The position numbers and the translations under genes are program-made. Under the pieces are notes generated by a model, which was not told the DNA's origin, did not search any database, and was given only the letters and a program-made list of their open reading frames with translations. Shown here piece by piece: positions 29,906 through 46,488 of a DNA stretch of 64,000 nucleotides. The stretch's first letter is position 1. Each line of letters starts with the position of its first letter. Origin of the DNA: Candidatus Omnitrophota bacterium (lineage in GTDB: Bacteria; Omnitrophota; Gorgyraeia; Zapsychrales; JAKLDJ01); the NCBI GenBank assembly GCA_022703585.1, contig JAKLDJ010000004.1:71594-135593 (forward strand), given 5' to 3'.

Positions 29906-30897
29906 ACGTTTTAGGAATCGAAACATCGTGCGATGAAACCGCGGCTGCCGTCGTCAAAGACGGAAAGTATATCCTTTCGAATATTGTCTCTTCCAGTTTG
30001 AAGTTGCATCAAAAATACGGAGGGATCATCCCCGAGATTGCCTCGCGCCAGCAGCTAGAACTTATCCAAATTGTCGTCAACAACGCCTTGCATCAGGCCG
30101 GCATTACGTTAAACGGTATTGACGCCATTGCGGTTACAGGTAATCCAGGATTGATCGGCTCGCTTTTGGTTGGGATGTCTTATGCCCGAGCCTTAAGCTA
30201 CGCAACCAAAAAGCCATTGGCAGAAATTAATCACATCCAGGCCCATTTGTACGCGAGTTTCTTGTCATCAAAAAACGGGAAAGCCCCAGATGCACAATCC
30301 CGAAATCAGACGCCTAAACTGCCGGCCATCGGGTTAGTGGTCTCCGGAGGGCACTCCAGTATTTTTCATATTAAGAGTTTTAGAAAATATATCCCCCTAG
30401 GGCAAACCCGCGATGATGCAGCCGGAGAGACATTTGACAAAGTGGCCCGCATTCTGGACTTAGGTTATCCCGGCGGCCCGGCAATCGACCGGCTGGCAAA
30501 AAAAGAAAAAAACAGCCACATCCGTTTTACCTGTGCCGAACTGCCCGGAACCTATGATTTTAGTTTTAGCGGAATTAAAACCGCCGTTTTGTACTACGTC
30601 CGCAAACACCCCGACGAAAAAAGACTTTTCCTAAATCAAATCGCCCACGCATTTCAGAAAAGTGTGGTTGCGGTTTTAGTGGATAAATGTATCCGGGCCT
30701 GCAAAGAAACAAAAATCCGCAACCTTGTCGTCGGAGGCGGTGTGGCGGCCAATTCCGGCCTACGTCAAAGCCTCTGTGCTGAAGCCGAACGGAATGATAT
30801 CGAGGTATTCTTTCCGCCCATTTCTTTATGCATCGACAATGCAGCGATGGTTGCGGGATTGGGCTATCAAATACTTTACGAAAGGAGAAAACAATGA
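29902..30897 (+). CDS. tsaD: tRNA N6-adenosine threonylcarbamoyltransferase
   Basis: MNVLGIETSCDETAAAVV N-terminus with metal-binding His pair; Kae1/TsaD family. Confidence 0.93.
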   Translation: MNVLGIETSCDETAAAVVKDGKYILSNIVSSSLKLHQKYGGIIPEIASRQQLELIQIVVNNALHQAGITLNGIDAIAVTGNPGLIGSLLVGMSYARALSYATKKPLAEINHIQAHLYASFLSSKNGKAPDAQSRNQTPKLPAIGLVVSGGHSSIFHIKSFRKYIPLGQTRDDAAGETFDKVARILDLGYPGGPAIDRLAKKEKNSHIRFTCAELPGTYDFSFSGIKTAVLYYVRKHPDEKRLFLNQIAHAFQKSVVAVLVDKCIRACKETKIRNLVVGGGVAANSGLRQSLCAEAERNDIEVFFPPISLCIDNAAMVAGLGYQILYERRKQ

Positions 30898-31370
30898 GCA
30901 CCTACGAGTGGGACACGATTTCAAAAGTTGTTTTGACTATTCTCTTGTCGGGCTTAATCGGCGCCGAACGGGAAATTCGGCACAAGGGAGCGGGCTTAAG
31001 AACACACATTTTAGTGGGGGTGGGTTCGGCACTGATTGTATTGACTTCCTTTCATATTTCTGATACATATAAAAATGTAACCTTTATCGACCCGACCCGC
31101 ATGATTGCCGGCGTGGTTACCGGCATCGGCTTTTTGTGCGCCGGTACCATTATTCTCCAGGGCAATACACGCGTCATCGGGCTTACAACCGCCGCCAGCC
31201 TCTGGATTGTCTCGGGGGTCGGTATCGCCATCGCATCGGGCCATTACATCGGCGGGATAACGGTTGCTTTACTTGTCTTCTCCACTTTAGTCTGGTTAAA
31301 ACCGATTGAAAGAGTTTTGGCAAACCGATTTGGAAGTACTAACAAAGGAGGCGAAAATGGCAATGCGTGA
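30894..31370 (+). CDS. MgtC/SapB family membrane protein
   Basis: GLIGAEREIRHKGAGLRTHILV motif typical of MgtC. ATG at 30894 overlaps the tsaD stop (ATGA). Confidence 0.8.
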   Translation: MSTYEWDTISKVVLTILLSGLIGAEREIRHKGAGLRTHILVGVGSALIVLTSFHISDTYKNVTFIDPTRMIAGVVTGIGFLCAGTIILQGNTRVIGLTTAASLWIVSGVGIAIASGHYIGGITVALLVFSTLVWLKPIERVLANRFGSTNKGGENGNA

Positions 31371-31860
31371 TCGCAGAGATCCTGAACGCGCCATTGAAAT
31401 CAGCGCGGATATGCAGGGAACCTTGGCATTTAAAGACCCCGTCAACCTTAAAATTACGGGAAAGTTTAACGGCACCCTGGACACCAAAGGAACATTGACC
31501 GTCGGAGAAACGGCATCCGTTGAAGCCCATATTAACGGCGAAAATATTATTATTGCCGGAAAAATTAAAGGGGACGTCACCGCCCGAAAGATGCTGGTCT
31601 TAATGCCCACGGCGACCTTAAACGGCAACATCGCTACACCAAAGCTCAACATCGTCGAAGGGGCAATCTTCCAGGGAAAGTGCCAGATGTTCGACGAGTA
31701 TCTTGATTTAGACGGACTGGCAAAATACCTGGAGATTGATATGACATCCCTAACGGAGCTCGCCAATACCGGAAAAATACCGGGGACAAAAAACGGTAAC
31801 GCCTGGCGGTTTGAACGCACCAAGATTGACGAATGGGCGGCATCCGAGAAAGTGCATTAA
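31357..31860 (+). CDS. Bactofilin-domain protein fused to a C-terminal excisionase-family HTH (HTH_17-like)
   Basis: The beta-helical bactofilin core ends with EGAIFQGKCQM, matching the bactofilin signature. The C-terminal LDLDGLAKYLEIDMTSLTELANTGKIPGTKNGNAWRFERTKIDEW matches the excisionase-type HTH pattern. AGGAGG RBS upstream of the ATG at 31357. Confidence 0.75.
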   Translation: MAMRDRRDPERAIEISADMQGTLAFKDPVNLKITGKFNGTLDTKGTLTVGETASVEAHINGENIIIAGKIKGDVTARKMLVLMPTATLNGNIATPKLNIVEGAIFQGKCQMFDEYLDLDGLAKYLEIDMTSLTELANTGKIPGTKNGNAWRFERTKIDEWAASEKVH

Positions 31861-31933
31861 ATAAACTTGATAAACACAGCTGGTGTGTCCTTCTGAAATT
31901 CAAGAAGGATGCGGGAAGAGAATCTAAAATAAT

Positions 31934-32233
31934 ATGTCCGACCAATTTATAAGCGTCAGAGAAGCCGCGCAGACCCTCGGTGTAACCGAAAAGAAAATCA
32001 TGGACTTAATCGACGAGGGAAAGTTGCATGCCTACAAAATTGCAGGACAATTTTTACGGCTAAAGAAAAGCGAAGTCTTAGACACCCAGGATGGGGGAAC
32101 GGTAGCAACAGAATTCAATCATTACCCTTACACCCGGGCCGAACGCATCAAAGACTTCTTTTACTTCAACGACTTTTACATTCTATCGCTTGTAATTATC
32201 TTGGCGCTTTTATACGTCATCTTTTACCGGTAA
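31934..32233 (+). CDS. Excisionase-family HTH (HTH_17-like) protein with C-terminal TM anchor
   Basis: ISVREAAQTLGVTEKKIMDLIDEGKLHAYKIAGQFLRLKKSEV HTH pattern followed by the hydrophobic helix ILSLVIILALLYVIF. Confidence 0.6.
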   Translation: MSDQFISVREAAQTLGVTEKKIMDLIDEGKLHAYKIAGQFLRLKKSEVLDTQDGGTVATEFNHYPYTRAERIKDFFYFNDFYILSLVIILALLYVIFYR

Positions 32234-32243: not shown

Positions 32244-32597
32244 ATGCATCATAACGCTATCGTCGTCGCTTCCGGCATGATCGCCCTCCTGGTGTCGGGG
32301 TGTCTCACCCCGTCCGGCAGTAAAACCCGCCCGGATCCCAAGCAAGTACTTGAACTAAAAATACAGAATTTCCAGGCCTTGGAGCAGGCGATTAAGACCG
32401 GCGCCATCCAGGCCGGGATGACGACCGAACAAATCCGAGAATCTTACGGTGAACCAGACGATATTTTCAGCTCAGGATCAACAATGGGAGAATTCGAAAT
32501 CTGGGCTTACGAACGCATTACAGCAAAAAGCGCCGATGTCTTCCGTCCCGTAAGGCTCTATTTCAACAACAACAAATTAGTCAGCTGGCATTATTAA
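32244..32597 (+). CDS. Lipoprotein, BamE/SmpA-OmlA-like
   Basis: Lipobox LVSGC after the signal peptide. Small beta-rich domain with GMTTEQIRESYGEPD, reminiscent of BamE. Confidence 0.5.
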   Translation: MHHNAIVVASGMIALLVSGCLTPSGSKTRPDPKQVLELKIQNFQALEQAIKTGAIQAGMTTEQIRESYGEPDDIFSSGSTMGEFEIWAYERITAKSADVFRPVRLYFNNNKLVSWHY

Positions 32598-32710: not shown

Positions 32711-32756
32711 TTTTATTGGCGGGGTAGCTCAGCCCGATAGAGCACTCGGCTCATAC
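32711..32756 (+). repeat. attL-like direct repeat (7 nt upstream plus first 39 nt of the tRNA(CAT) gene)
   Basis: ttttattggcggggtagctcagcccgatagagcactcggctcatac is identical to 46325-46370. The copy diverges immediately after the anticodon loop. Confidence 0.85.
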
Positions 32757-32864
32757 GCTATAAAATTAGAAATTAAAATTCAATTTTTTACTCCCATCAT
32801 TAATTAAATCCTCCCAAATAACCTTCATTGATTAAGAATAAGTTTGTCATAACGCTAAAATGTT

Positions 32865-33773
32865 ATGAAATTAAACGATGCGTATGATGAATTTATCAAC
32901 TCAGCACTTTTGGAAAGATGTTTAGAGCAAACAACTATTGATTGGTATTCTCGTTGCATTCAGCCAGTATTTAAATACTTCCGCTACAACCTCATTCCGC
33001 TAGAAGTTGATTCTCTAACAGTCGAAAATCTAAGAAAATATTTTATTAGTTACAAACAAAAAGGAAACACTTCAAGGACTGTGCTTAATGCAATGCAGGG
33101 CACTAGGTCTTTTTGTAGTTTTCTACTCAAGAGGGGGTATTTGCAAAAAAATCCTTTCCTTGAACTTGAAAAACCAAAGCTACCTAAAACACTTCCTGAA
33201 TTCTTAGATGAAGAAGAGGCAAAAAAATTACTACAAGCATGTATTAATCTCAAAAGAACCTACAAATCTAGGTGGAGCAGAGACATTGCTATTATCGCTT
33301 TGTTTCTCTTTGCTGGTTTGCGCAAGAAAGAACTTTTAAACTTAAAACTAAACGATTTCAATCAAGAAAAAGGATATATCAAAGTTTCTGCAAAGAATAA
33401 AGAGAGATTAGTTCCATTATGCGATACAGCTAAATCATTTCTACTGGATTATCTGAAAATAAGACCCAAAAGAGTGCTGGTCGATAATATTTTTGTGTCT
33501 ACTAACAGAAAATCATCTGCACTAACGCAACAGGGGTTATACGATTTATTCCTGGATTTACGTAAGCTAGTACAGTTTAGGATAAAGAAAAAGCTTAGCC
33601 CCCAAATTCTGAGGCATACTTTTTGCACCTTAATGCTCCGAAATGGCGTAAATTTGCGGGATATTCAGCTTTTAGCAGGGCATTCGGATATATCTACTAC
33701 GGCAAGATTTTATTTGGGGTGTGATGAAAAACAGCTAAAAAGTGCGGTAGATAGACATCCGTTGAATATTTGA
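32865..33773 (+). CDS. int: Tyrosine-type site-specific recombinase/integrase
   Basis: C-terminal catalytic region LRHTFCTLMLRNGVNLRDIQLLAGHSDISTTARFY (R...HxxR...Y). N-terminal SAM-like core-binding domain. Confidence 0.9.
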   Translation: MKLNDAYDEFINSALLERCLEQTTIDWYSRCIQPVFKYFRYNLIPLEVDSLTVENLRKYFISYKQKGNTSRTVLNAMQGTRSFCSFLLKRGYLQKNPFLELEKPKLPKTLPEFLDEEEAKKLLQACINLKRTYKSRWSRDIAIIALFLFAGLRKKELLNLKLNDFNQEKGYIKVSAKNKERLVPLCDTAKSFLLDYLKIRPKRVLVDNIFVSTNRKSSALTQQGLYDLFLDLRKLVQFRIKKKLSPQILRHTFCTLMLRNGVNLRDIQLLAGHSDISTTARFYLGCDEKQLKSAVDRHPLNI

Positions 33774-33797
33774 TTTTACCAGAAGAAAGCGTATAAT

Positions 33798-36700
33798 ATG
33801 CGCATGTCCGCATTAGTCGAAGAAAGAATAAAGAGATGGAAAAACAAATTAATAGACCTATCTAAACGTAATCGACTCCTCAATTTTAAGCCCACCAAAA
33901 CAACCACTATTCAGATTGTAGACGAAATTCCATCAGAAGCTTATCGTACTATTGTTCTAAATGAAAGTGTCATGTCTTTTCTTCCAGCAGATGGCGATAT
34001 CGAAGGCGACAAAGACAATACGGGTTCTTCCAGTCAGCTTGAAATAAAAGAATTTCAAGATTACGCTCAAGAAGAATTAGACACAAAACACACTGATTTA
34101 TACCTTCAAACAAACTTGGGTGAAAGCCATCTCGACAAGAATTTATTTCGCATTACTTCAATCGCTACATCGGTTATGGAAGAACAAGGTTATAACTCTT
34201 TGTTTTTGGCATTAGGTTTTTTGGAGTGGTATGAATCAAAAGATTCGGATGTTAAGTTTAGGTCTCCTATCCTTTTAATTCCTGTGCAATTAAACAGAAA
34301 ATCAGTCAAAAGTGATTATACTTTGAGTTTTGGTGAAGATGCGCCTATTTTGAATCCTGCATTAATATATATGCTTTCGCTTGATTTTGGCATTGATTTA
34401 GAGGACATAAGCGAAGAATTAGAACAAATTGAACCCAGAGAAATATTCAGAAAAATACAGGAAGCGATTCAGGAATTTGAACGTTGGAAAGTAACTAATG
34501 ATATCTTTTTAAGTTTGTTTTCATTTACGAAATTTATTATGTTTAAAGATTTAGAAAAGAATATGGGCACGCTCATTGATAATAAAGTTATCCAAATTAT
34601 TTGTGGTGTGGGGAGAGAAGAAAATATAGCCTTGGACGACATTTGCCCATTAGGAGAAATTGAGAAAAATACGAAACCGGAGAAAACTTTTCAAATTCTT
34701 GATGCAGACTCAAGCCAACAAAGAGCAATTCTCGTAGTCAAAAAAGGACATAACCTTATTATCGAAGGCCCCCCAGGAACAGGAAAGTCGCAAACAATAG
34801 CCAACATGATTGCGGAAAGTCTAACAGAAGGGAAGAAAGTATTATTTGTGAGTGAGAAAATGGCAGCTCTTGAGGTTGTAAAGAATCGGCTTGAATTAGC
34901 CGGTATTGGAGATTATTGCTTAGAACTGCATAGCCGTAAGACTAATAAAAAAAGGGTAGCTGAGGAACTTGGAAGGGTGATGGAACAACGAAAAAAGCCC
35001 GACCATAGCCATAATGATGAATTAGCTAAATTAGAGAGATTGCGTTCAGAATTAAATCGCTACGTATCAGATTTGCATAAAATATTTGGCGGGCTTCAGA
35101 TGACCCCGTACCAAGCAATTGGGATAGTTAATGCACATCCAGATATGCCAGACTTAGAATACATGTTTAATAACACCAAAGAGTGGTCAAAAGATAAATT
35201 TGATATAATCTGTGAACTTTTTGAGAAATTAAGTCGAAATATATTGAATATCGGACAACCACGATTGCATCCTTGGTTCGGTACAAGTCTTATCGAATTA
35301 GTTTATTCTGACAAAACAAATCTAAGAAACCATTTCAATAACATAAGTAGAATAGTTTCTGAGCTAAAAATTAGTATTGATGCATTGAGTGAAATCAGTT
35401 CATTTGGTGATGTAAAAACTATTTCCGATATTCAAGAATTGTTAGATGCATCTGAAATTTTGAAACTTTCGCCTAACGTAGCAAGTGATTTGCTAAAAGA
35501 TAAACGTTGGAATGATATCAGTGCAGATGTGAGACAAGCTATTAGTGCAGTACAAACATTTAATACTTTTGAGAAGAAATATTCAAGCCAGTATAAAATG
35601 ACGGTGTTGAATGAAAACATTGAGGAGATTCTCCAAAGATATAAAACTTATACGAGTAACATGTTTTTTGTATTTAAATTTAGTTTCTGGAAAGATAGTA
35701 AAGTTCTCAAGAGTCATTTTACAGGTAAGAGAAAAATTAACCTAAAGGAACTAATCAAGGAATTAGACGAATTATTTCTTTGGAAAAAGTCTGCACAGCA
35801 AATAGACGATTTTAGTAAAAATGGAAATGAGCTTTTTGGTGAACGATGGAGAGGGCGTAAGTCCAGTGGCGAAGAACTCCAAAAGTTCTCAGAATGGATT
35901 GTCAAATTTAGATATCATGTAATTAAGAATCATTTTAAAGATAAGGTTTTTGAAAGCAGCAAAGATAAATCTTCTCTTGAAGATTTACAAACGAAAGTAA
36001 AAAACAACTTGGATGAATTTAATGGTGTTTTAAGCTCAATCAATAGCATCGTAAAATTCGATTATAAATTAGCTTTTAGTACTAAGCTCTGCGAACATAA
36101 TGACCTTGATATGATAAGAGGGAAATTAAATAAGATGAGCGAGTCGATGGAAGAAGTAGACCCTTGGCTAAGCTTTCAGAGAGTATACCAAGAATGTGAG
36201 AAGGAGGGGTTAACTGAATTTATTGATGTGCTTTTAGCCAAAGATATTAAACCAGAAGCATACGTGACGGCTTTTAAATGTCAATTCTTACGATGTTGGT
36301 TGGATGAGGTTTTCTCTGAGAGAGATAGATTAAGAAATTTTCAAGGTAAAAACCATGAACAATTGATTGAGCAATTCAAACAATTAGATTGCAAACAAAT
36401 TGAATTGGCAAAGGTTCGAATCCAACATCTTCTTTCTGGAAATTATGATTCAAGTTGGAAAGGAGCTCAGAGTTCTGAGAGAGGAATACTGGAGCGTGAA
36501 GTTAGAAAAAAAAGAGCACATAAGCCTCTTAGAAAGTTATTTAAAGAAATACCTCACTTGTTATTATCACTAAAACCCTGTTTAATGATGAGTCCTTTAA
36601 CTGTCGCACAGTTTTTGGAGCCAGACTTATTCGATTTTGACTTGGTTATTTTTGATGAAGCTAGCCAAGTGCCTCCTCAGGACAGTATTGGAGCAATTAT

Positions 36701-38498
36701 GCGTGGTAAGCAAATAGTTATTGCAGGTGACGCTAAGCAGTTGCCACCAACTTCATTTTTTCAATCAACGGTATTGGATACTGAAGATGATGATGAATTT
36801 GATGAGTATATCCCAGAAGATTTAGATAGCATTCTAGATGAATGTGCGTCAGTTGGCTTGCCTCGGACTTTATTAGAATGGCATTACAGAAGCAAACACG
36901 AGTCTTTAATCGCATATTCGAACAAATATTATTATGAAAATAGATTAAATACTTTTCCTAATTCAATAGATGTGAGTGATACGCTTGGAATTAAATTCAA
37001 TTATTTTCCAGAGTCACAGTACCGTAAGGGCGGTGTAAATATTCTTGAAGCACAAGAAGTTGCTAAAAGAGTGTTTCAACATTTTAAGGAGAATCCTGAT
37101 ATAAGTTTAGGTGTGGGGACGTTCAGTATCAAACAAAAATATGCCATAGAGGATGCTGTTGAAGAATTAAGAAAGAACGATACAAGCTTAGAAGACTTGT
37201 TTTCTCCGGATAGGCCAGAGCATTTCTTTGTTAAGAATCTAGAATCAATACAGGGAGATGAGCGAGACGTAATCTTTATTAGTATTGGATATGGTAAGGA
37301 TGATTCTGGAAAATTGCCAATGAGATTTGGACCTATTAATCAACTGGGTGGAGAGCGAAGGCTTAATGTTCTTATTACGCGAGCAAGAAGACGATTAGAA
37401 ATCTTCAGCTCAATACGAGGCTCCGACTTTGACTTGACTAAAACAGAAAGTGAGGGAGTGCACCTTCTCAAGAAATATCTCGATTATGCTGAGCTGGGAA
37501 GAAGCGTACTGCTTCAGGATATCGAATATTCGAATTCATCTAGTTATTCTGACTCTCCATTCGAGGAGGCAGTATATGAATCTTTAGTCAGGGCAGGATT
37601 TAAGGTTCATCAACAAGTTGGGTGTTCAGAATATAGAATTGATATGGCTATCGTCGATGTTGAATTACCGGGCAAGTATGTACTTGGCATTGAATGTGAT
37701 GGAGCAAATTATCATTCAAGTATTACAGCAAGAGATAGGGATAGACTGAGACAGCAGGTCTTAGAGGGCCTGGGATGGAATATTTATCGAATTTGGTCTA
37801 CCGATTGGTTTAAAAATAAGAAGAAGGAAACAGAAAGATTGATTGAGGCAATTAGAGAAAGCCAGAAGGGAAATAGTAAAAAAAAACTAAATAAATATAC
37901 TAGTTTTGAAATAAAACTCAATTCCGCCTCCACAGAGACATTATCGAATAAAGATAGGAAATTGGTAGATTATCAATTAACTCCCGTGGATTCCATCAGA
38001 ACATCAGATTTTTATTATCAATCAGATGAAGTTCTAGCTCAAATTTTAATTAAAATAGTCAAGTGTGAGGGGCCGATTTTTTATGAAGAAGCATGGAGGA
38101 GATTAATCCAACACTGGGGGATGCGGTCTGTAGGCAGTAGGATTCGACTCAAATTAAAAGGCTTAGAGCAATACTGCTTAAATAATAAGAAATTTGAGAA
38201 ACGAAAAGATTTTTATTGGCTTAATAAGCATCAAGAATTGAAGATTAGGAACAGAGACGTTAACGATGTTTATAAAAAGATTGAGTATGTTGCCCCAGAG
38301 GAAGTCCAAGAAGCAGTGAAATATGTTTTAAATATGGAGTACTCAATACCACTAGTTTCTTTAATATCTCAAACAGCTAAATCATTAGGCTTCCATAGGA
38401 TTGGTGATGACGTTTATTCATATATTAAGAAAGCGATTGATTTGCTTATAAAAAATGAAGATTTGTATGAAGACAACGGCAATATAAGGATTAAGTAA
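33798..38498 (+). CDS. Giant helicase-nuclease: DUF4011-like N-terminus, Upf1-like SF1 helicase (AAA_11/AAA_12), Vsr/DUF559-like PD-(D/E)xK nuclease and DUF3320-like tail
   Basis: 1566 aa. SF1 motifs: Walker A EGPPGTGKSQT, Walker B VIFDEASQV, motif III IAGDAKQLPPT, motif V IQGDERDVIFIS, motif VI NVLITRARRRLEIF. C-terminal endonuclease-like block: FEEAVYESLVRAGFKV...EYRIDMAIVD...LGIECDGANYH. Confidence 0.8.
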   Translation: MRMSALVEERIKRWKNKLIDLSKRNRLLNFKPTKTTTIQIVDEIPSEAYRTIVLNESVMSFLPADGDIEGDKDNTGSSSQLEIKEFQDYAQEELDTKHTDLYLQTNLGESHLDKNLFRITSIATSVMEEQGYNSLFLALGFLEWYESKDSDVKFRSPILLIPVQLNRKSVKSDYTLSFGEDAPILNPALIYMLSLDFGIDLEDISEELEQIEPREIFRKIQEAIQEFERWKVTNDIFLSLFSFTKFIMFKDLEKNMGTLIDNKVIQIICGVGREENIALDDICPLGEIEKNTKPEKTFQILDADSSQQRAILVVKKGHNLIIEGPPGTGKSQTIANMIAESLTEGKKVLFVSEKMAALEVVKNRLELAGIGDYCLELHSRKTNKKRVAEELGRVMEQRKKPDHSHNDELAKLERLRSELNRYVSDLHKIFGGLQMTPYQAIGIVNAHPDMPDLEYMFNNTKEWSKDKFDIICELFEKLSRNILNIGQPRLHPWFGTSLIELVYSDKTNLRNHFNNISRIVSELKISIDALSEISSFGDVKTISDIQELLDASEILKLSPNVASDLLKDKRWNDISADVRQAISAVQTFNTFEKKYSSQYKMTVLNENIEEILQRYKTYTSNMFFVFKFSFWKDSKVLKSHFTGKRKINLKELIKELDELFLWKKSAQQIDDFSKNGNELFGERWRGRKSSGEELQKFSEWIVKFRYHVIKNHFKDKVFESSKDKSSLEDLQTKVKNNLDEFNGVLSSINSIVKFDYKLAFSTKLCEHNDLDMIRGKLNKMSESMEEVDPWLSFQRVYQECEKEGLTEFIDVLLAKDIKPEAYVTAFKCQFLRCWLDEVFSERDRLRNFQGKNHEQLIEQFKQLDCKQIELAKVRIQHLLSGNYDSSWKGAQSSERGILEREVRKKRAHKPLRKLFKEIPHLLLSLKPCLMMSPLTVAQFLEPDLFDFDLVIFDEASQVPPQDSIGAIMRGKQIVIAGDAKQLPPTSFFQSTVLDTEDDDEFDEYIPEDLDSILDECASVGLPRTLLEWHYRSKHESLIAYSNKYYYENRLNTFPNSIDVSDTLGIKFNYFPESQYRKGGVNILEAQEVAKRVFQHFKENPDISLGVGTFSIKQKYAIEDAVEELRKNDTSLEDLFSPDRPEHFFVKNLESIQGDERDVIFISIGYGKDDSGKLPMRFGPINQLGGERRLNVLITRARRRLEIFSSIRGSDFDLTKTESEGVHLLKKYLDYAELGRSVLLQDIEYSNSSSYSDSPFEEAVYESLVRAGFKVHQQVGCSEYRIDMAIVDVELPGKYVLGIECDGANYHSSITARDRDRLRQQVLEGLGWNIYRIWSTDWFKNKKKETERLIEAIRESQKGNSKKKLNKYTSFEIKLNSASTETLSNKDRKLVDYQLTPVDSIRTSDFYYQSDEVLAQILIKIVKCEGPIFYEEAWRRLIQHWGMRSVGSRIRLKLKGLEQYCLNNKKFEKRKDFYWLNKHQELKIRNRDVNDVYKKIEYVAPEEVQEAVKYVLNMEYSIPLVSLISQTAKSLGFHRIGDDVYSYIKKAIDLLIKNEDLYEDNGNIRIK

Positions 38499-38524
38499 AA
38501 TATGTTTTAATAAATATACAATTT

Positions 38525-38734
38525 ATGAATGACCTATTTGATGAATTCTTAGAATATGATTTTACTATGGGGGTTGATGTTGTGAAGTGCCCGCATTGCG
38601 GTGGTGACGTGCAATGCAGCCTTTTCATTGATAGCGAAGTTGAATGTTCAGGGTGTGGAAAAAAATTTCATAAGGATGAATTAAGAGCAAATCGTAAGAA
38701 TCCTAAAGACACAATACCTAAACAGCCGAATTAG
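38525..38734 (+). CDS. Small zinc-ribbon protein
   Basis: 69 aa with CPHCGG...CSGCGKKFH (two CxxC pairs). 26 bp downstream of the helicase-nuclease gene. Confidence 0.5.
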   Translation: MNDLFDEFLEYDFTMGVDVVKCPHCGGDVQCSLFIDSEVECSGCGKKFHKDELRANRKNPKDTIPKQPN

Positions 38735-38777
38735 GTCGAGAAAAGGTTCTGTCTTTATATTATAGGGCATAGAAACT

Positions 38778-41309
38778 ATGTTTAATTTCTTCAAATTTCA
38801 AAATTATCGCTCTTACTGGAAAATAAGAAATTTGGTTTTATTATCTAAATTTTGGATACATAGGTTGTTTTTTCAAGGTAATTTAAAAATAAAAGACGCT
38901 CAGGAAGAGTTGTCAATAGTTACTCACCTAACATGGCTTGCTTCAAAAACCATTCTTTTTTCTATTCTTATCGTAGTATCTTGTGAATCATTCGAAAAAG
39001 CAATATTAAAATTTCTCCCTACTAATACAACAATCCTTCTAGCGGGAATGCACGACTTAGTTATAAGAAACTCCAGTTCTTTGGAGAATTTTATCATGAC
39101 GATTGCTTCGATACTAGGCGTGTTCTTGGGTCTTTACTTTACTGCAATTAGTATCGTAGCTAGCTCGGTATTTACAGCTGTGCCGAGCAATGTTAGAGAG
39201 TTGTACTTAAAAGAGAAAATTGGGAATACCTATATACGGATATTGGCTATCCTTTTAGCAATTTCGATTATAATCTTTGGCTGTCGGATATTTGGCTATT
39301 ACCCAAGCACGCTGCTAACCGTTTTAATGCTGATTTTTAGCTGTGTCAGCATATTCGCATTTGTAATGTTGGGGGTTAGAGCCTTTTCCTTCTTCGACCC
39401 CACTGTGTTAGTAGATATAATTTTTGCGGATTTATATGCAGATATAAGATTGGCGAGTGTAAGTGGCCTAAGGTGGCTCGATTCTAACTTTCAGTCTCAT
39501 TACCATAAGCTTGCATCAAAAAACGTAAACACCCTTGCTAATTTGGTCGAAATATGTCTAAAAAATCCTCATTTATACAAGAAATCTGTCCCGTTGCTAT
39601 CATGGCGTCTATGCTATTTTTTAAAAGATTATCAAATGCAAAAAGCCCGAATACCTACTGATAGTTACTGGTTTTCACGTATACCAAAATATAAAGACAC
39701 CTTCATCGTAGACGACACAACTTTAACAGTAGCATTACAAACTCAAACTTCTATTCAACCGGAATCTATAACTGATAATTATTGGCTGGAAGATGAAATT
39801 TTTGAAATCCTTACGAATATGCTTAGCATTATGTTAAATAATCACAATATTATAATCTCTGCCGATATTTTAGATGGTATTAATAAATATTTTGAAGATT
39901 TGGGAGAGAAACTGGAGGGTAAGAAATGCTGCGATATGTTTAAGAAAATAGAAGCAGTAATGGAACCTTATTTTCTAAGTCTTTCTGAAGAAAAATGTAA
40001 AGGAATAGCGGATGTAAATTTTGCTCTGTTTGATAGATATAACATGCTTCTGTTGTCTTGCGCGATGGGATTCAATAAATTTATTCGTGAATTCAAAACA
40101 TCTTCCTTTATGCAAAACATAGATTCCATTTTGTGGGAGGATAGGGGTGCTATTTATCGAAACTCTATGGTGCCGATGCTATTGGAAAGGCTAGAATTCC
40201 TCCAAAAACGCCTCGAATTTGAACAGAAAGTAGAAGGGGAGTTTGTTAGCCCTACTTGGTACAGAAGACAGTTACTTAGTAATAAAATTGGCTTAATAGT
40301 GAACGAAGTTTTTGAATCAATGATGAGTTCATTGCAAAATTTTTATGTTAATAGTTCCAGCGCACTTTTAAACAAAAAAGCAGTTATCTTAACAACATAT
40401 AGGGCAAAAAGAGGTCTCGAAGTATTCTGGAAAATGCAAACCCATATTCTGCATCTCAAGAAACTGATTGAAAATCTCGAAAAATTTAACATAGAAAAAG
40501 AATTGTTTTGGCCAAAGTGGGATTGGGATGTTATTGAGAAGAAAATCGATAAAAATAATGATGCCCTCATACAACAAGAAGCTAAATGCCTTCCGGCACT
40601 ATCTATCATAAATAAAACAGAGAATGAGCCAGACCTCTTCGGCGAAACATATCATAAAATCTGTGAAGAATGTTTTGCATCTTTGGCAAATAATAAAGAT
40701 GAAAAATTCTCCACAATATTTCATTCCTTATTTATAGGTGCTCTTCAAGCGCATGACCGCCTTAGAATTTCGTATAAAGACCGTGACGCCAGAACTCAAA
40801 TATTAATTTCATTTCAGCCATTAGCAGACCTTATAGAAGTAAGTGGCTATGCCAAAATATATTCTGAGTTGTTCTCTTCTCCAAAACTATGGGAAACGTG
40901 CCAGGAATGTTGGAATAATTATTTAAATAATAAAGAAAAGAAAGATGAAACAATAGAATACATCATTACGAGTTACCAATATAAAAAGGCACAATTCGGT
41001 TTATTTGCACGAGATATTTGGAAAACAAATTGGCAAATTAAACTTAATAGAAAATTGCAAGAAATGAATTTAATCGACAGTATGTTTAGAGAAGACGATT
41101 ATCCGAGAAAGCCAAAAGAGAGACTTGCGGATAAAAGTCCTTTTATCCGAACTCTGTGCAGAGGGAGATATGAACCATTTATTCGTGCTTCAGAAATTTT
41201 TCTCCTCATTTATTTTGTAAAACAACTTGGAGTTAAGAACTTTTCCGATAATCATAATTTTATTCGGCATTTGGAAGAGGAAGAAGCTAAGACCAATGTT
41301 ACGAAATAA
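38778..41309 (+). CDS. Large multi-pass membrane protein (≈6 N-terminal TM helices + ~600-aa cytoplasmic helical region), function unknown
   Basis: 843-aa ORF with hydrophobic helices between residues ~45-230 and a Lys/Glu-rich alpha-helical remainder. No recognisable catalytic motif. Confidence 0.6.
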   Translation: MFNFFKFQNYRSYWKIRNLVLLSKFWIHRLFFQGNLKIKDAQEELSIVTHLTWLASKTILFSILIVVSCESFEKAILKFLPTNTTILLAGMHDLVIRNSSSLENFIMTIASILGVFLGLYFTAISIVASSVFTAVPSNVRELYLKEKIGNTYIRILAILLAISIIIFGCRIFGYYPSTLLTVLMLIFSCVSIFAFVMLGVRAFSFFDPTVLVDIIFADLYADIRLASVSGLRWLDSNFQSHYHKLASKNVNTLANLVEICLKNPHLYKKSVPLLSWRLCYFLKDYQMQKARIPTDSYWFSRIPKYKDTFIVDDTTLTVALQTQTSIQPESITDNYWLEDEIFEILTNMLSIMLNNHNIIISADILDGINKYFEDLGEKLEGKKCCDMFKKIEAVMEPYFLSLSEEKCKGIADVNFALFDRYNMLLLSCAMGFNKFIREFKTSSFMQNIDSILWEDRGAIYRNSMVPMLLERLEFLQKRLEFEQKVEGEFVSPTWYRRQLLSNKIGLIVNEVFESMMSSLQNFYVNSSSALLNKKAVILTTYRAKRGLEVFWKMQTHILHLKKLIENLEKFNIEKELFWPKWDWDVIEKKIDKNNDALIQQEAKCLPALSIINKTENEPDLFGETYHKICEECFASLANNKDEKFSTIFHSLFIGALQAHDRLRISYKDRDARTQILISFQPLADLIEVSGYAKIYSELFSSPKLWETCQECWNNYLNNKEKKDETIEYIITSYQYKKAQFGLFARDIWKTNWQIKLNRKLQEMNLIDSMFREDDYPRKPKERLADKSPFIRTLCRGRYEPFIRASEIFLLIYFVKQLGVKNFSDNHNFIRHLEEEEAKTNVTK

Positions 41310-42279
41310 AAAAATACACCAAGACGAAAAAAGTTCGATGAAATCCATTTATTACACTCCTTTGGAGCATCGAAGGGATGTGTACAGCTCTTTTTATAAT
41401 CACATGCTAACCGAAGATATTCATTTGGGCATAATGCCCTTTGGCGGAAGAACCAAAAATGAGTTGTTTAAAGTAGCAGTTAAACCACAGGATGCGGAAA
41501 TCGAGAATTTAATAAAAGATAGTTTACTTACGCATCACGGCGAACCGTATGATTTAAAAGAAGCGATTTGCGACTTTATTGACGAAGCTGCTGCATTACT
41601 AGGATACGATGGCGTAGCTTATTACGAAATTGTATATTATACGACTTCCAAAAAGCCGACACGATTTGAGTTGCACCGTATTATCAACAGAAATATAAAA
41701 GATACGTTTGGATTATACTGGCAGTATATCCCGAGTGCTGCACGAAAATATATAGAAACGGATAAGAAATTCATCTGGCTACCTAAGAGGAGAATTATTA
41801 AAATAAAATTTCCCAGTATAATTGGTGGTTTAAATTCTCAACGAACATTAATCCACAACCTAACATGGCTGAGCGAATGTAGCGTAACACCGAAATTTGC
41901 AATGGAAGACATGAAAAAACAAAAGCAAACAAACGATTATGATTTCGTAGTTTACCAGAGAAACAAGAACATATTTTTAGCTAGAATAACGCAACGTTTA
42001 GGATGGTCTGCTCGAGGCGAATTGAATGATTATACATTAGATATTTATCAGTTATACCGATACCTAAAATTTGAGAAAACCAAAGCAATTATCCGAGAAA
42101 CTGTTTTAGGCAATCTTAATAAAGCACTAGCTACTATCGGTAAAGAAATTGGTTTTAATGCAACAATCGAAATAAGCGGTATTCCTTCAGCATCAGATTT
42201 TGATAATTACATAGATAAGCTTCTTTCGGGAGAAATGCCATTTGCCAAGGTTGTCGAGATTATGAAATATGATTGGTAA
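41296..42279 (+). CDS. Hypothetical protein, translationally coupled to the upstream membrane protein
   Basis: ATG at 41296 overlaps the preceding stop by 14 nt. 327 aa with no recognised domain. Confidence 0.5.
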   Translation: MLRNKKIHQDEKSSMKSIYYTPLEHRRDVYSSFYNHMLTEDIHLGIMPFGGRTKNELFKVAVKPQDAEIENLIKDSLLTHHGEPYDLKEAICDFIDEAAALLGYDGVAYYEIVYYTTSKKPTRFELHRIINRNIKDTFGLYWQYIPSAARKYIETDKKFIWLPKRRIIKIKFPSIIGGLNSQRTLIHNLTWLSECSVTPKFAMEDMKKQKQTNDYDFVVYQRNKNIFLARITQRLGWSARGELNDYTLDIYQLYRYLKFEKTKAIIRETVLGNLNKALATIGKEIGFNATIEISGIPSASDFDNYIDKLLSGEMPFAKVVEIMKYDW

Positions 42280-42618
42280 TAGCACTATTTGTTTCCAGAG
42301 AAAAACGCGAGATTGCCGATTAAGGCAGAAAATAGCTACCGATTAGTTAGAGGTCTATGATAAAATACCGATAAATTAACCTGATGTGGAAATGGCAGCA
42401 TAAAAATTTCAGAGAGGGAGGTTTACAGAGTAAAATATTTTAAATATTTAGGAACATAGCTTTTCCTAATTAATAAACCAACTTGTGAGAGGAAGAGACT
42501 GTGTCCTGGGCACTTCGGTGCTTGGGGCAAGCGGTCTTTCGCTTTTACTCACAAGTTGGGCGTTAGACTTAAAAATGCTTGCCCTTTTTTATTTGGGTAA
42601 GCCTAAAAGGAGGGGACA

Positions 42619-43131
42619 ATGATAGCATCGCTAGTAACTTTAATAATTGTTATTGGGTCATCGATTTGGATAGCTATTGATGCACATCGAAACAAGATTT
42701 CCACTGACAATAAGCCGTACCGGATAAATAGCGGTGCTGTGACTTGGTTTTTTGCTTGTCTCTTATTCTGGATTTTTGTACTCCCTGCCTATCTCTTCAA
42801 GAGATTCAAACATCTAAAAGCCCAAGGAAAAAACTCTATCCTAGCAACTGTAGTGGGGATTATTCTGTTAGCAGTTCCAATCATGATGTTTACTGGCATC
42901 ATGAAGATGCCCACCTTAGACCTCCAAGAACAGGTTAAGCAAAGCATAATAGAGACGTGGTCAAGAGAGCCAACGATGGCAAATACTCAAATTCAGTCCT
43001 TTACGTTAATTCACAAAAGCAACAACCAGTATGAGGGTTTACTTGAAGTCACGATGAATGGGGTGGCTACAAGATTTCTCATAGATGTCACGTACGATGG
43101 TAGGAAATTTATGTGGCAAATTAGGCAATAA
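42619..43131 (+). CDS. Small membrane protein (2-3 TM helices + C-terminal soluble domain)
   Basis: 170 aa with GGAGGGG RBS and hydrophobic segments at residues ~5-25, 40-60 and 70-95. Confidence 0.5.
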   Translation: MIASLVTLIIVIGSSIWIAIDAHRNKISTDNKPYRINSGAVTWFFACLLFWIFVLPAYLFKRFKHLKAQGKNSILATVVGIILLAVPIMMFTGIMKMPTLDLQEQVKQSIIETWSREPTMANTQIQSFTLIHKSNNQYEGLLEVTMNGVATRFLIDVTYDGRKFMWQIRQ

Positions 43132-43627
43132 TCTCTGGCATAGCTTTTTAAACATTTTGTAGTCTAAGAACTTATCAAAACTGCTTCGAAAAGCATATTA
43201 TATTATTCAAAAGTTTCCTATAAAGCATCAAGCCCCACCAATCTTTCCCCGAAAATACATCGAAGAAAACCACTTTGTAAATCTAATTAAATATCATAAA
43301 TCATTTATTTGCAACAGGTTACTGTTAGTCACTACAGATTTTTATACAAAAAATAGGCGTATTCAGAGAAAGATAGGGTAGGTAGAGCTAAATTTCAGAC
43401 CGGGGTTGAGCGAAGAGCGACCCACCGGGTATTGGTCAACCATCAAAGAGTAGTCACGTAGACTACTAGTCGATGGCTATCAGTGCTGCCTAGCAAATCA
43501 CATGTTGCTCAAGAATTCGTTGAACCTAGCCTATGCCGGAGCGCAAATAAGCAGCTCCAAATTTAATCTGCCAACTATTTCTAAATGTTTTTCTCGTCGA
43601 GAAATCAAGTTTTTCAAAAAAAAGTAC

Positions 43628-43656
43628 TTGACAAAATTATTTTTGTGTTCTATAAT
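43628..43656 (+). promoter_or_regulatory. Consensus sigma70 promoter (TTGACA-N17-TATAAT) inside the island
   Basis: ttgacaaaattatttttgtgttctataat has perfect hexamers with 17-nt spacing. It reads into the iteron-like repeats and the small ORF / repO-like gene. Confidence 0.6.
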
Positions 43657-43689
43657 TTGCTTGTAACATGTTGGTGCTGAATGACTTGC

Positions 43690-43817
43690 GTGGATTTTTT
43701 GCGGACGAAAAGTGGATTTTTCATGGAAATAGAGTGGATTTTTCGTAATATATCTGAAAGGAGGTGATAATATTTAAAGAATAAAAAAATAAAAGAAAAC
43801 GGATAAATCGTGGATTT
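43690..43817 (+). repeat. Iteron-like direct repeats GTGGATTTTT (x3 at ~21-23-bp spacing, plus a fourth degenerate copy)
   Basis: gtggattttt occurs at 43690, 43710 and 43733, with cgtggattta at 43808. Two-helical-turn spacing, located immediately upstream of a lambda-O-like initiator gene. Confidence 0.55.
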
Positions 43818-43937
43818 AGCGATTTATAGTAGCCCTTACTCTGTCTGGTGTAGATTAGGGGCATTTTTTTAACATAACCTTCTGATTCTTAGCTGAATCG
43901 GGGGGTTTTTTATTAAAGAATAAAGAAGGAGGGCTCT

Positions 43938-44156
43938 ATGAATAACAAACCAAAACAAAAAATCAGATTCGGCGATGTCAATTTATGCGTCTGGGAAAAT
44001 ACGATTAAGATAAAGGATAATGCTGTCCCGGTTTTGACATATACTTTCAGCAAATCGTATCGTTCGAGAGGTAAATTCAAATACATGAGAAACTTTCAAA
44101 AACAGGATTTACCTAACATCACCAAAGCGATAGAAATAATTTCTGGTTCTCGCTGA
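43938..44156 (+). CDS. Small hypothetical protein
   Basis: 72-aa ORF with AAGGAGGG RBS. Lys-rich and of no recognisable family. Confidence 0.4.
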   Translation: MNNKPKQKIRFGDVNLCVWENTIKIKDNAVPVLTYTFSKSYRSRGKFKYMRNFQKQDLPNITKAIEIISGSR

Positions 44157-44221
44157 GCAAAACTAGATAAAGAAAAAATATATATCAAAATACAACTTTA
44201 AAATAAAAAGGAGATAAAAAA

Positions 44222-45139
44222 ATGGACAATTTTAAAAACCTTTGGCAACCCTACGATGATAAGAAATCACTTTTGTGGACAAAAATTCCAAATTGCTTAT
44301 TGCTTTTTCTTATGCAAGGTAAGCAAAGGTTCACAGAAATTAGAATTATTTTATTAATTTGTCGTATGGGCTTCGGATTCAAAAGAGAGGAGACTAATTA
44401 TCTTGATTTGAAAGACTTTGAAAAAGCCACAGGATTAAATAAAAGCCAAGCTTCTAAGGCAATAAATTCACTCTTAAGCGCATATGTGATATTCCGCTAC
44501 TCGAAGAATGGTAACAAGTATAAGTATGCAGTTAATCTTTTGAAGCATGGCATAGAAATGAAGCATTTCCGAATTGGTAAAATGGATAGCCAAAAAGATA
44601 ATGGGATTTATCAGATTGGAAATATAGATTACCAATTAGACAATTATAACGGCTCGAAGAATGAGCTAATTCTATATAGTTCCAAGGGTTACAAGAATGT
44701 AAAAAACCCCTATATAAAAGAGGATAGAAAAGATGATATAAAAATAGATATAGCAAAAAGGCATGCCAGTAGTCCTGTTTCTAGCAGTCCTACTAGCAAT
44801 ACTTTAACTGGCAACGCTAGCCAAACTACCAAGAGTAAAAAATACAATAACACCATGGAATTAGCTCAGGATTTTGATAAAGAACTATATAAAGCAAATA
44901 TAGAAAAGGATGGTGAAAAATTGCTAATTAGATTCATAGAATTAGAGCATTCACAATTTCCCGACCAAAGGCAACCTTGGCTCATACCAAGTATTTATTG
45001 TGACTATACAGCCAGAAAAATAGCTGGATTAACTGAGGAGATGTATACCAAAGAGCTTAATAAAATTCTGGAAAATGCCAATAAGTTACGAAACGAATTA
45101 AACTCTAGATGTAGCGAATTACTAAAGAATAAAAAATAG
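44222..45139 (+). CDS. Replication initiator / replisome organiser, phage lambda O-like N-terminal winged-helix
   Basis: N-terminal segment TEIRIILLICRMGFGFKREETNYLDLKDFEKATGLNKSQASKAINSLLSAYVI follows the lambda O / phage_rep_org_N pattern (xxLLxIxRxTxGxxK...TGL...AIxxL). Adjacent to iteron-like repeats. Confidence 0.55.
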   Translation: MDNFKNLWQPYDDKKSLLWTKIPNCLLLFLMQGKQRFTEIRIILLICRMGFGFKREETNYLDLKDFEKATGLNKSQASKAINSLLSAYVIFRYSKNGNKYKYAVNLLKHGIEMKHFRIGKMDSQKDNGIYQIGNIDYQLDNYNGSKNELILYSSKGYKNVKNPYIKEDRKDDIKIDIAKRHASSPVSSSPTSNTLTGNASQTTKSKKYNNTMELAQDFDKELYKANIEKDGEKLLIRFIELEHSQFPDQRQPWLIPSIYCDYTARKIAGLTEEMYTKELNKILENANKLRNELNSRCSELLKNKK

Positions 45140-45219
45140 AATAATACATCTATCGCGTTTTTGCGAAGGAACATTTCCATTGACATTTGCTGAAGCATTT
45201 GTTATGGTATACCAAAACT

Positions 45220-45393
45220 ATGAAATACTATACCATAAGTCAACTTGCTAAAGAGCTTAAAGTGCATAAAAATACCATTTTCTATTGGGAGAAAACGGGT
45301 AAAATACCTAAACCCAAGAGAGAATCTGTAAGCGGTTATCGTGTTTGGACAGAGAAAGATGTAAAAAAGATAAGAGAGTCAAATTCGAGGTGA
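45220..45393 (+). CDS. MerR/excisionase-like HTH protein (candidate Xis or regulator)
   Basis: 57 aa. YTISQLAKELKVHKNTIFYWEKTGKIPKPKRESVSGYRVWTEKDVKKI follows the MerR-type/Xis pattern. Sits near attR. Confidence 0.5.
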   Translation: MKYYTISQLAKELKVHKNTIFYWEKTGKIPKPKRESVSGYRVWTEKDVKKIRESNSR

Positions 45394-45396
45394 AAA

Positions 45397-46215: not shown

Positions 46216-46324
46216 TTTAATAACAGAAAGGAGAAAGCATACTAGACAAATAATTCTTAGTCAATGGTTGTAAAAAATATTGAATTTTTGTCAATTTTAG
46301 CTTAGAATCCTTCAATTATATTAA

Positions 46325-46370
46325 TTTTATTGGCGGGGTAGCTCAGCCCGATAGAGCACTCGGCTCATAC
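46325..46370 (+). repeat. attR-like direct repeat (7 nt upstream plus first 39 nt of the intact tRNA)
   Basis: Identical 46-mer to 32711-32756. Confidence 0.85.
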
Positions 46371-46405
46371 CCGATTGGTCGAGAGTTTAAATCTCTCCCC
46401 CGCCA
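46332..46405 (+). tRNA. tRNA with CAT anticodon (elongator Met or Ile2/lysidine type)
   Basis: Hand-folded cloverleaf: acceptor GGCGGGG/CCCCGCC, D-arm GCTC-loop-GAGC, anticodon loop CTCATAC (CAT), T-arm GAGAG-TTTAAAT-CTCTC, discriminator A, no encoded CCA. G1-C72 rules out the initiator. tilS lies 1.2 kb downstream. Confidence 0.8.
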
Positions 46406-46488
46406 CTTTCTCTCACAAACCCCACCCGAAAATTCCGTAGATTACTTTGCCCCGTATCAGTATAATAAGGAAGCAAAGGAGGGGACCC

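Follow-up and report, generated by a model that had tools for sequence, protein, structure and literature searches.

A bactofilin–winged-helix fusion and its tail-anchored winged-helix partner form a conserved gene pair of Candidatus Omnitrophota

The two genes and their products

The DNA analyzed here, a stretch of 64,000 nucleotides (nt) from contig JAKLDJ010000004.1 of a Candidatus Omnitrophota bacterium (positions 71,594 to 135,593; assembly GCA_022703585.1) that is called the window throughout, carries two adjacent genes on the plus strand. The first encodes BacHTH, a bactofilin fused to a C-terminal winged helix of the helix-turn-helix (HTH) family HTH_17, and the second encodes HTH-TM, a small protein in which another winged helix of this family is followed by a transmembrane helix. 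The features of this two-gene cassette and the basis of each assignment are as follows.

31357..31860, plus strand: gene 1, BacHTH, bactofilin–winged-helix fusion of 167 amino acids (aa); open reading frame (ORF) with Shine-Dalgarno sequence, Pfam
31357..31392, plus strand: N-terminal tail of BacHTH, residues 1-12, possible variant membrane-targeting sequence (MTS); composition in 120 core homologs
31393..31686, plus strand: bactofilin β-helix, residues 13-110, with invariant Phe105 at the C-terminal polymerization face; PF04519, Foldseek
31699..31845, plus strand: C-terminal winged helix of the HTH_17 or BldC-Xis type, residues 115-163, acidic; PF12728, DSSP, Foldseek
31934..32233, plus strand: gene 2, HTH-TM, tail-anchored membrane protein of 99 aa; PF12728, TIGR01764, position after gene 1
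31946..32095, plus strand: winged helix of HTH-TM, residues 5-54, basic on average; AlphaFold2, Foldseek, position table
32129..32170, plus strand: juxtamembrane aromatic motif Y-[TS]-x-x-E-[RK]-x-x-D-F-F-Y-F-N-D-F-Y, residues 66-79; family alignment
32171..32227, plus strand: C-terminal transmembrane helix of HTH-TM, residues 80-98; hydrophobicity, AlphaFold2

The original prediction had placed a bactofilin domain and an HTH_17-like domain in the first protein and a second HTH_17-like domain with a C-terminal membrane anchor in the next, and hidden Markov model (HMM) searches bore out these calls for two same-strand ORFs at exactly the coordinates given. In BacHTH, whose ATG (31357) sits 5 nt 3' of an AGGAGG sequence and whose stop codon occupies 31858-31860, the Pfam Bactofilin profile (PF04519) matched residues 13-110 over profile positions 3-98 of 98 with 88.1 bits (cut-off 27.9), and HTH_17 (PF12728) matched residues 115-163 with 35.3 bits (cut-off 27). 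In HTH-TM (ATG 31934, stop 32231-32233) the latter profile matched residues 6-49 with 35.5 bits. The TIGR01764 'excise' profile reached 41.1 bits in HTH-TM, above its cut-off of 28.8, and 26.6 bits in BacHTH, below it.

AlphaFold2 models of both proteins were built from family alignments. For BacHTH (predicted local distance difference test score, pLDDT, 79.6) a β-helix was predicted, with pLDDT values of 84-92 in residues 11-80, followed by an alpha-alpha-beta-beta-alpha winged helix (helices 118-125, 129-138 and 154-162 and strands 144-146 and 149-153 by DSSP) that begins approximately 8-10 residues past the β-helix, or about 8 past its last strand. Foldseek comparisons matched the predicted β-helix to Caulobacter crescentus BacA (2N3D; TM-score 0.84) and to the Thermus bactofilin TtBac (6RIB; TM-score 0.77). 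When the family profile was aligned with BacA 2N3D and TtBac 6RIA, the BacHTH motif GAiFqGkc fell on GAVFVGQS of TtBac and GAFFQGRS of BacA, so that F105 of BacHTH, which is invariant (n=33), corresponds to F130 of BacA and to F105 of TtBac, the residue mutated to Arg in PDB entry 6RIA. By its domain, its predicted right-handed β-helix fold and its predicted hydrophobic polymerization interface BacHTH is thus a true bactofilin. It has the Pfam domain, the β-helix fold, the polymerization Phe and a short basic N-terminal tail in common with the canonical bactofilins BacA and TtBac, whereas these end in disordered C-terminal tails in place of the folded winged helix of BacHTH. The global bactofilin MTS consensus is MFSKKKK (PMC12448750), while the core clade of BacHTH proteins begins with M-A-[LF]-R-D-[RK]-[RK]-[ED] (n=120 core homologs), which is acidic at positions 5 and 8 and resembles the consensus only loosely. 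In distant clades the N-terminal tails are basic and variable.

The model of HTH-TM (pLDDT 80.7) comprises the winged helix (residues 5-54), a linker, a helix (68-78) and the hydrophobic stretch FYILSLVIILALLYVIFY, which is modeled as a helix (80-98) with pLDDT values of 90-96. The protein continues for only 1-4 residues past this putative membrane anchor across the family, and for one residue here, which means that HTH-TM lacks a periplasmic domain. Residues Y66, E70, D74, Y77, N79 and Y82 in and around the juxtamembrane motif are invariant (n=41 sequences), and helix 2 of the winged helix, the recognition helix, has an almost invariant S-E-K-K-[IV]-M-D-L sequence across the partner family.

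Both winged helices found the same structural neighbors in Foldseek, namely BldC, Pukovnik Xis, RdfS and RacA, on which they superpose with a root-mean-square deviation (rmsd) of 1.3-2.5; TM-scores against BldC, Xis and RdfS ranged from 0.72 to 0.86. The fused domain of BacHTH gave rmsd values of 1.7-1.8 against BldC (6AMA), and the domain of HTH-TM gave values of 1.3-1.5 with TM-scores of 0.83-0.86. A phmmer search of PDB sequences with the isolated fused domain returned no match, and Xis and BldC were reached solely through profile and fold searches. Between the two winged helices themselves BLASTP produced no alignment, and hhalign gave a probability of 83% with 18% identity, so that by sequence they are remote relatives only. 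An HMM of the fused domain run over the window found copies only in HTH-TM and in a MerR-like gene at 45184, indicating that the domain is not a generally amplified module in this region.

Distribution of the fusion and its pairing with HTH-TM

Homologs of BacHTH fell into 1,115 clusters at 90% identity, the best 120 of which aligned over their full length with 64-80% identity and all contained both Pfam domains. A profile of distant members recovered another 1,362 clusters, the best 120 of which likewise all contained both domains, and every source-named entry among these distant matches came from Omnitrophota or Omnitrophica. Approximately 20 representatives of 50%-identity clusters were also full-length fusions (35-54% identity), and a 100%-identical BacHTH is on record in a 917-kb Candidatus Omnitrophota contig. 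Moreover, when one genome of each GTDB species was scanned, 568 genomes had a BacHTH relative, from which 80 genome loci (L001-L080) were kept; locus statistics given below as 'of 80' refer to these. The 80 genomes are metagenome-assembled genomes (MAGs) of Omnitrophota, about half of which were deposited as 'uncultured Planctomycetales bacterium'. The MAGs with the latter title have synteny and 58-74% protein identity in common with the Omnitrophota-labelled ones, and their deposit names are probably coarse or wrong. Thus the survey of phylogenetic spread called for by the original prediction placed the fusion in more than 2,400 clusters at 90% identity and in 568 species genomes, the named ones being Candidatus Omnitrophota.

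These data also bear on whether the fusion might have arisen artificially, from separate bactofilin and small HTH genes joined by a frameshift or by a sequencing or assembly error. The same architecture recurs across independent assemblies, in 1,115 plus 1,362 clusters, as well as in the 568 genomes, and the connector that leads from the last β-helix motif to the winged helix has a length of exactly 10 residues in 119 of 119 core sequences (17-24 residues in distant classes). Apart from the existence of a few HTH-less relatives (P0247, P0261-P0264 and P0273) nothing spoke for an artifact. We considered these relatives as a sign that the fusion is optional and rejected this, as they look like contig-end fragments or frameshifted tails. 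Since the homologs inspected, 120 of the 120 best and 120 of the 120 distant-profile matches, carry both domains, the frameshift that had been raised as a possible source of error is excluded, and we attach practically no probability to any artificial origin.

An HTH-TM-type gene lies directly 3' of the BacHTH gene in 86 of 86 loci, which comprise the 80 genome loci, five loci of distant members with downstream sequence, and the window. The partner genes encode proteins of 94-114 aa with a winged helix and a C-terminal transmembrane helix. Overlapping stop and start codons, usually in the form ATGA, are seen in 31 of the 86 pairs, and the median gap is 7.5 nt. This points to translational coupling and to approximately equal amounts of both proteins. 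The spacer in the window is 73 nt long, and the hairpin in it has z = -1.08. In the core clade the pair is accompanied by genes for an S41 peptidase, a YibQ-like deacetylase, TsaD (76 of 80 loci) and an MgtC-family protein (48 of 80). The distant members occur in other contexts (BatD, TPR and MgtC; GreA; SPOR and TPR-PDZ), and the pair is kept in members with only 35-47% identity and different neighbors (L083, L084 and L085). The persistence of the pair while its surroundings change demonstrates that the two-gene cassette is the conserved unit, and HTH-TM is the obligate partner of BacHTH.

Taken together, the gene pair is a phylum-wide signature of Candidatus Omnitrophota that has not been described previously. 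In agreement with the original prediction, full-text literature searches on bactofilins, HTH-type domains and Omnitrophota yielded no account of a bactofilin–winged-helix fusion, and a large study of Omnitrophota genomes mentions neither bactofilin nor FtsZ or MreB.

Surfaces of the two winged helices and their possible functions

The nearest solved structures to both winged helices are those of DNA-binding proteins, and the residues that contact DNA were compared. A total of 255 fusion proteins and 120 partners were aligned to BldC and Pukovnik Xis, and positions are given in BldC numbering. The BldC sequence used reproduces every residue number cited in the report of the BldC–DNA contacts. 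According to that report (PMC5859096), BldC contacts DNA through K26, T27, T29, R30 and K33 of the recognition helix and R47 and R48 of the wing; Arg30 is a bidentate guanine reader, and RacA reads GC-rich sites with the equivalent Arg.

Position 26 (Lys in BldC, base contact): fused domain Ser/Pro/Asn, 3% Lys/Arg; partner 100% Lys/Arg
Position 27 (Thr, phosphate contact): fused domain variable, 2% Lys/Arg; partner 99% Lys/Arg
Position 29 (Thr, phosphate contact): fused domain variable, 7% Lys/Arg; partner Met
Position 30 (Arg, guanine reader): fused domain 93% Glu/Asp, 1% Lys/Arg; partner 100% Asp/Glu
Position 33 (Lys, phosphate contact): fused domain Asn/Ser/Asp, 9% Lys/Arg; partner 94% Glu/Asp
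Position 41 (wing): fused domain 96% Lys/Arg; partner 100% Lys/Arg
Position 48 (wing): fused domain 76% Lys/Arg; partner 100% Lys/Arg (R48)
Position 51 (C-terminal to the wing): fused domain 99% Lys/Arg; partner 100% Lys/Arg

For the 50 residues that align with BldC 9-58, the mean net charge was -3.8 for the fused domain (isoelectric point 4.7) and +2.2 for the partner domain, compared with +5 for both BldC and Pukovnik Xis, and the fused domain was negative in 85 of 85 unique pairs (range -7 to -1). An electropositive DNA-binding face was absent from the fused domain and partly present in the partner domain. As judged from these residues, the fused domain is devoid of the electropositive face of its DNA-binding relatives, its recognition-helix surface being free to vary, and it looks better suited to docking on the partner than to binding DNA.

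Conservation in the two domains is found on surfaces of a different kind. The conserved surface of the fused domain, Y20 (99%), L21 (99%), E22 (97%), D/E24 (99%) and W/L31, coincides with one face of the BldC oligomer interface (F21, R22, V23 and W31), while the invariant residues of the partner, positions 40-43 (Y, R/K, I, A; 100%) and Arg15 (100%), coincide with the other face (L11, E16, I40, T42, L43 and G44). In addition, charges are swapped between fused domain and partner at positions 15 (D/E versus R), 50 (E/D versus K) and 53 (K/R versus E/D). This combination of conservation and opposite charges is the pattern expected from a directional heterodimer of the two winged helices, which remains an inference because several of the interface residues also belong to the hydrophobic core. 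There is precedent for such contacts. The faces most conserved in the Omnitrophota pair are those through which BldC and RdfS self-associate head-to-tail, the RdfS winged helices oligomerize in this manner without DNA (PMC11963761), and the MerR-fold protein CbpM, solved together with the CbpA J-domain, was among our Foldseek matches.

We tentatively propose, as the most likely of the readings considered although by no means a certain one, that the cassette produces a bactofilin scaffold riveted to the membrane by docking of the fused domain on the partner domain, any bound DNA being held mainly by the partner. The two genes would be co-expressed, and BacHTH would polymerize through the ends of its β-helix into filaments on the cytoplasmic face of the inner membrane, each subunit displaying a BldC/Xis-type winged helix after a connector of fixed length, so that an array of domains would result. 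HTH-TM would sit in the membrane by its tail anchor, with the second, remotely related winged helix as its only cytoplasmic module. The acidic conserved 'head' face of the fused domain (positions 20-24 and 31) would dock on the 'tail' face of the partner, which is basic and invariant (positions 11-12, 15 and 40-44), in a head-to-tail contact of the kind used by BldC and RdfS for oligomerization, and the scaffold would thereby be fixed to the membrane at a stoichiometry of about 1:1. DNA at the scaffold, if there is any, would more likely lie on the partner winged helix (Lys26, Lys27, Arg41, Arg48 and Lys50/51), although weak wing contacts of the fused domain, multiplied along the polymer, could add to its holding.

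This docking model draws on the obligate pairing, the translational coupling, the opposite charges, the conservation pattern and precedents, which include, besides those described above, the binding of PbpC by BacA and of BacR by BacE and BacF (see below). A related protein, P0277, is also of relevance here: in this sister bactofilin (48% identity over the β-helix) a PilZ domain (PF07238, 39.6 bits) replaces the winged helix, indicating that the C-terminus of this bactofilin clade accepts swappable adaptor domains, and P0277 itself might be a bactofilin that responds to cyclic di-GMP. Several observations, however, speak against the model. L21 and V23 are core residues as well, and their conservation may reflect folding alone. 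Mutual information between the two proteins, corrected by the average product and computed over 85 unique pairs, was dominated by phylogeny and singled out no winged-helix contact, the top pairs being scattered and linking β-helix and HTH as often as HTH and HTH; likewise, the net charges of the two domains did not covary across pairs (r = 0.07). In the window itself the fused domain has a charge of -4 and the partner domain is neutral (0). The nearest solved structures, BldC, Xis, RdfS and RacA, are all DNA binders, and the fused domain keeps basic residues at wing positions 41, 48 and 51 (76-99% Lys/Arg), which leaves DNA contact possible.

The original prediction had gone in this last direction and proposed that the polymer tethers DNA through its own domain. 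In such an arrangement, winged helices displayed on the filament would bind DNA with low specificity and high avidity, the partner would provide a second, membrane-fixed DNA site, and no ParB or PadC adaptor would be needed to anchor or organize the chromosome at the membrane. RacA, to which both domains are structurally similar, uses DivIVA to anchor the chromosome at the cell pole. Both domains score above the HTH_17 threshold and superpose on BldC, Xis, RdfS and RacA, the basic residues of the wing and turn are conserved in the fused domain (K36 95%, K/R41 96%, K/R48 76% and R/K51 99%), and the multivalency of a polymer lowers the affinity required of each domain. Furthermore, relatives of the BldC/RdfS type are architectural proteins that line up head-to-tail on DNA, with one molecule for each helical turn, and recognize it through indirect readout (PMC5859096, PMC11963761). 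However, this reading is supported only in part, as the fused domain has the predicted BldC/Xis-like fold without the residues expected of a DNA binder: its charge is -3.8 versus +5 in DNA-binding relatives, Lys or Arg occurs in only 2-9% of sequences at four of the five recognition-helix contact positions of BldC, an acidic residue takes the place of the base-reading Arg30 in 93%, the contact positions otherwise vary, as would not be expected of a surface that reads DNA, and neither parA, parB nor other segregation genes are found in the conserved neighborhood. We regard a direct tether as a credible alternative, though a less likely one than docking. A joint grip on DNA by the filament array and the membrane partner, for instance as hetero-oligomers that alternate head-to-tail along the duplex and place a domain at each helical turn, in the manner of BldC and RdfS, appears somewhat less likely still; if true, it would constitute a self-contained, nucleotide-independent chromosome anchor or organizer at the membrane, without a ParB-like adaptor, across a phylum of ultra-small bacteria.

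A different link between the two proteins and DNA is suggested by BacR (YhbD, DUF4004) of Firmicutes, an HTH protein that is encoded beside bactofilin genes, binds the bactofilins BacE and BacF, is drawn to the membrane and then loses its DNA binding (PMC13649987). By analogy, the basic winged helix of HTH-TM would bind DNA as a membrane-tethered regulator or nucleoid anchor, the acidic bactofilin-borne domain would compete as a DNA mimic, and the assembly state of the filament would control whether DNA is held or released. In the Bacillus subtilis/Geobacillus case, binding of BacE and BacF strongly reduces DNA binding and recruits the HTH protein to the membrane. The basic residues of the partner (K/R26 100%, K/R27 99%, R15 100%, R/K41 100%, R48 100% and K50/K51; mean charge +2.2) and the acidic equivalent face of the fused domain fit such a switch. 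On the other hand, the partner recognition helix has Asp/Glu at positions 30 (100%) and 33 (94%), a permanently membrane-anchored partner is unable to relocate to promoters as BacR does, neither protein matched DUF4004 (Pfam, E <= 1), and the cassette is part of a housekeeping operon, with no promoter or operator evident for the cassette alone. In our opinion a switch of this type is improbable. A function in anti-phage defense was also considered and rejected as domain-level similarity, the NCBIfam MADS1 HTH match reaching 41 bits against a cut-off of 80 bits; PADLOC returned nothing for BacHTH and only 19 bits (mad1) for HTH-TM.

The comparison with characterized systems helps to place the cassette. 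BacA recruits a bitopic membrane client, PbpC, via the cytoplasmic tail of the client, and membrane binding, polymerization and PbpC recruitment are mutually reinforcing, and PbpC can replace the BacA MTS (PMC12448750). In the Omnitrophota cassette, in contrast, the membrane client would be a tail-anchored protein of 99 aa that is dedicated to the bactofilin, is co-translated with it and lacks a periplasmic domain. Like BacR in Bacillus subtilis, the winged helices are genetically linked to a bactofilin, and for BacR and BacE/BacF physical binding, a membrane-associated complex and mutually exclusive binding of bactofilin and DNA are established (PMC13649987). The association of an HTH protein with bactofilins is therefore not unprecedented, and it need not mean DNA tethering. 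BacR differs, however, in being a separate soluble DUF4004 protein of ~210 aa that affects yhbDEF transcript levels (PMC13649987), whereas in the cassette, which belongs to a different phylum, one HTH domain is fused to the bactofilin, the other is membrane-anchored, and both are of the HTH_17 family.

With BldC, Xis and RdfS both winged helices have the alpha1-alpha2-beta1-beta2-alpha3 fold (rmsd 1.3-1.8 to BldC) and the HTH_17/MerR-like family in common. These relatives, however, are free-standing, strongly basic (+5) and DNA-binding, in contrast to the acidic fused domain (-3.8) with its Glu/Asp at the position of Arg30, and unlike Xis-type proteins the Omnitrophota pair has no recombinase association. 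In B. subtilis RacA a MerR-like winged helix is similarly attached to a membrane-associated self-assembling scaffold, DivIVA, but it acts through a coiled coil and non-covalent DivIVA binding, and its GC-rich readout Arg is replaced by an acidic residue here. Finally, in Myxococcus xanthus a bactofilin scaffold, BacNOP, is reportedly tied to chromosome organization, the link to DNA being indirect, via the ParB-like adaptor PadC and ParB in a system with ParA. By contrast, no genes for ParA, ParB, PadC or other segregation proteins were found in the conserved neighborhood of the cassette, and the fused domain is without the features of a DNA binder.

Gene neighborhood, the tRNA-Met island and the meaning of the cassette

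The cassette is preceded in the window by a frequent upstream neighbor and is followed by an integrative island; the features outside the cassette are listed here.

30891..31370, plus strand: MgtC-family membrane protein (PF02308, 121 bits)
32244-32597: predicted lipoprotein of 117 aa, directly after the cassette
32711-32761 and 46325-46375: 51-nt direct repeat, 96% identical, duplicating the 5' half of tRNA-Met (46332-46406)
32865-33773: tyrosine integrase, island cargo
33798-38498: helicase-nuclease of 1,566 aa with DUF4011, superfamily 1 helicase (AAA_11/AAA_12), MTES_1575 nuclease and DUF3320 domains, island cargo
44222-45139: Phage_rep_O-like gene, island cargo
45184-45390: small MerR/Xis-like gene, island cargo

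The end of the MgtC gene overlaps the start of the BacHTH gene by 14 nt, which places both in the same operon, and an MgtC gene is also present in the divergent locus L083, which has no TsaD. A promoter and terminator scan of 28.5-33 kb gave no signal above shuffled controls. The neighbors comprise GatAB, the S41 peptidase, the YibQ-like deacetylase, TsaD, MgtC, a BamE-like protein, SNase, TilS and FtsH. The BamE-like protein is the predicted lipoprotein listed above, whose similarity to BamE/DUF3862 is weak (E ~1e-3, below cut-off); a relative of it was detected at this position in just 15 of 80 loci. The envelope-related genes among these neighbors (S41 peptidase, YibQ-like deacetylase and BamE-like lipoprotein, with SPOR and PDZ in distant loci) hint weakly at envelope organization, a theme common among bactofilins.

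The 51-nt repeat brackets a 13.6-kb integrative island (32711-46375). The 1,566-aa protein gives a full-length match of 1,627 bits to the PADLOC defense candidate PDC-S37 and also matches Hhe (694 bits), and by this similarity is probably an island-borne defense gene, while three further island proteins of 843, 350 and 170 aa had no Pfam match. Beyond the island, the backbone continues with SNase, TilS and FtsH, here preceded by a DoxX gene; the island-free locus L081 likewise has SNase, TilS and FtsH. The proximity of the integrase, which begins at 32865, about 0.6 kb downstream of the cassette, together with the 'excisionase' designation of HTH_17 and TIGR01764, raises the question of whether BacHTH and HTH-TM are excisionases (recombination directionality factors) of this integrase and part of a mobile element. 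However, both cassette genes lie outside the direct repeats of the island that contains the integrase, and no more than 2 of the 80 related loci have any integrase match nearby. In L081 this backbone is found with no island in it, and the island has a small MerR/Xis-like gene of its own (45184-45390). The island boundaries and the synteny thus argue that the HTH_17 domains of the cassette are not recombination directionality factors, and we consider such a function virtually ruled out.

Two further sightings concern more distant proteins. Locus L086 (JGI Ga0105164_10002154, 1-6850) encodes a Bactofilin-HTH_17 fusion, P0410, with ~30% identity and a canonical-looking MTS (MKFFSQKK), and with no HTH-TM partner adjoining it. 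P0410 sits behind a MamF/MmsF fragment, an HTH_3 regulator, a Volactin-family actin (307 bits), a ParA/MinD-type ATPase that carries a CBM48/AMPK glycogen-binding module at its C-terminus, and four proteins without a Pfam match; from its gene content the locus looks like a cytoskeletal or positioning gene cluster. The second protein, P0306 (231 aa), is built from three HTH_17 repeats in tandem, which together score 122 bits and are each slightly basic (+1 to +3), and has the wing motif G-x-x-W-x-F...D-x-W in common with the fused domain.

Omnitrophota are known only from metagenomes and a few enrichment cultures. Proteins of the kind described here are currently labelled "polymer-forming cytoskeletal protein" or "excisionase family DNA binding protein", and our results advise caution with both annotations. 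Bactofilins are widespread as scaffolds. To our knowledge, their clients have been described in only a handful of species, where the links are always made by separate adaptors or disordered tails. In Omnitrophota, a folded domain that may serve as an adaptor is instead hard-wired onto the bactofilin polymer and is accompanied by a dedicated tail-anchored partner. This compact system of two proteins of 167 and 99 aa could be rebuilt in E. coli or in vitro, and would allow us to address how bactofilin filaments attach to membranes and whether a winged helix has been re-purposed for docking or for DNA tethering.

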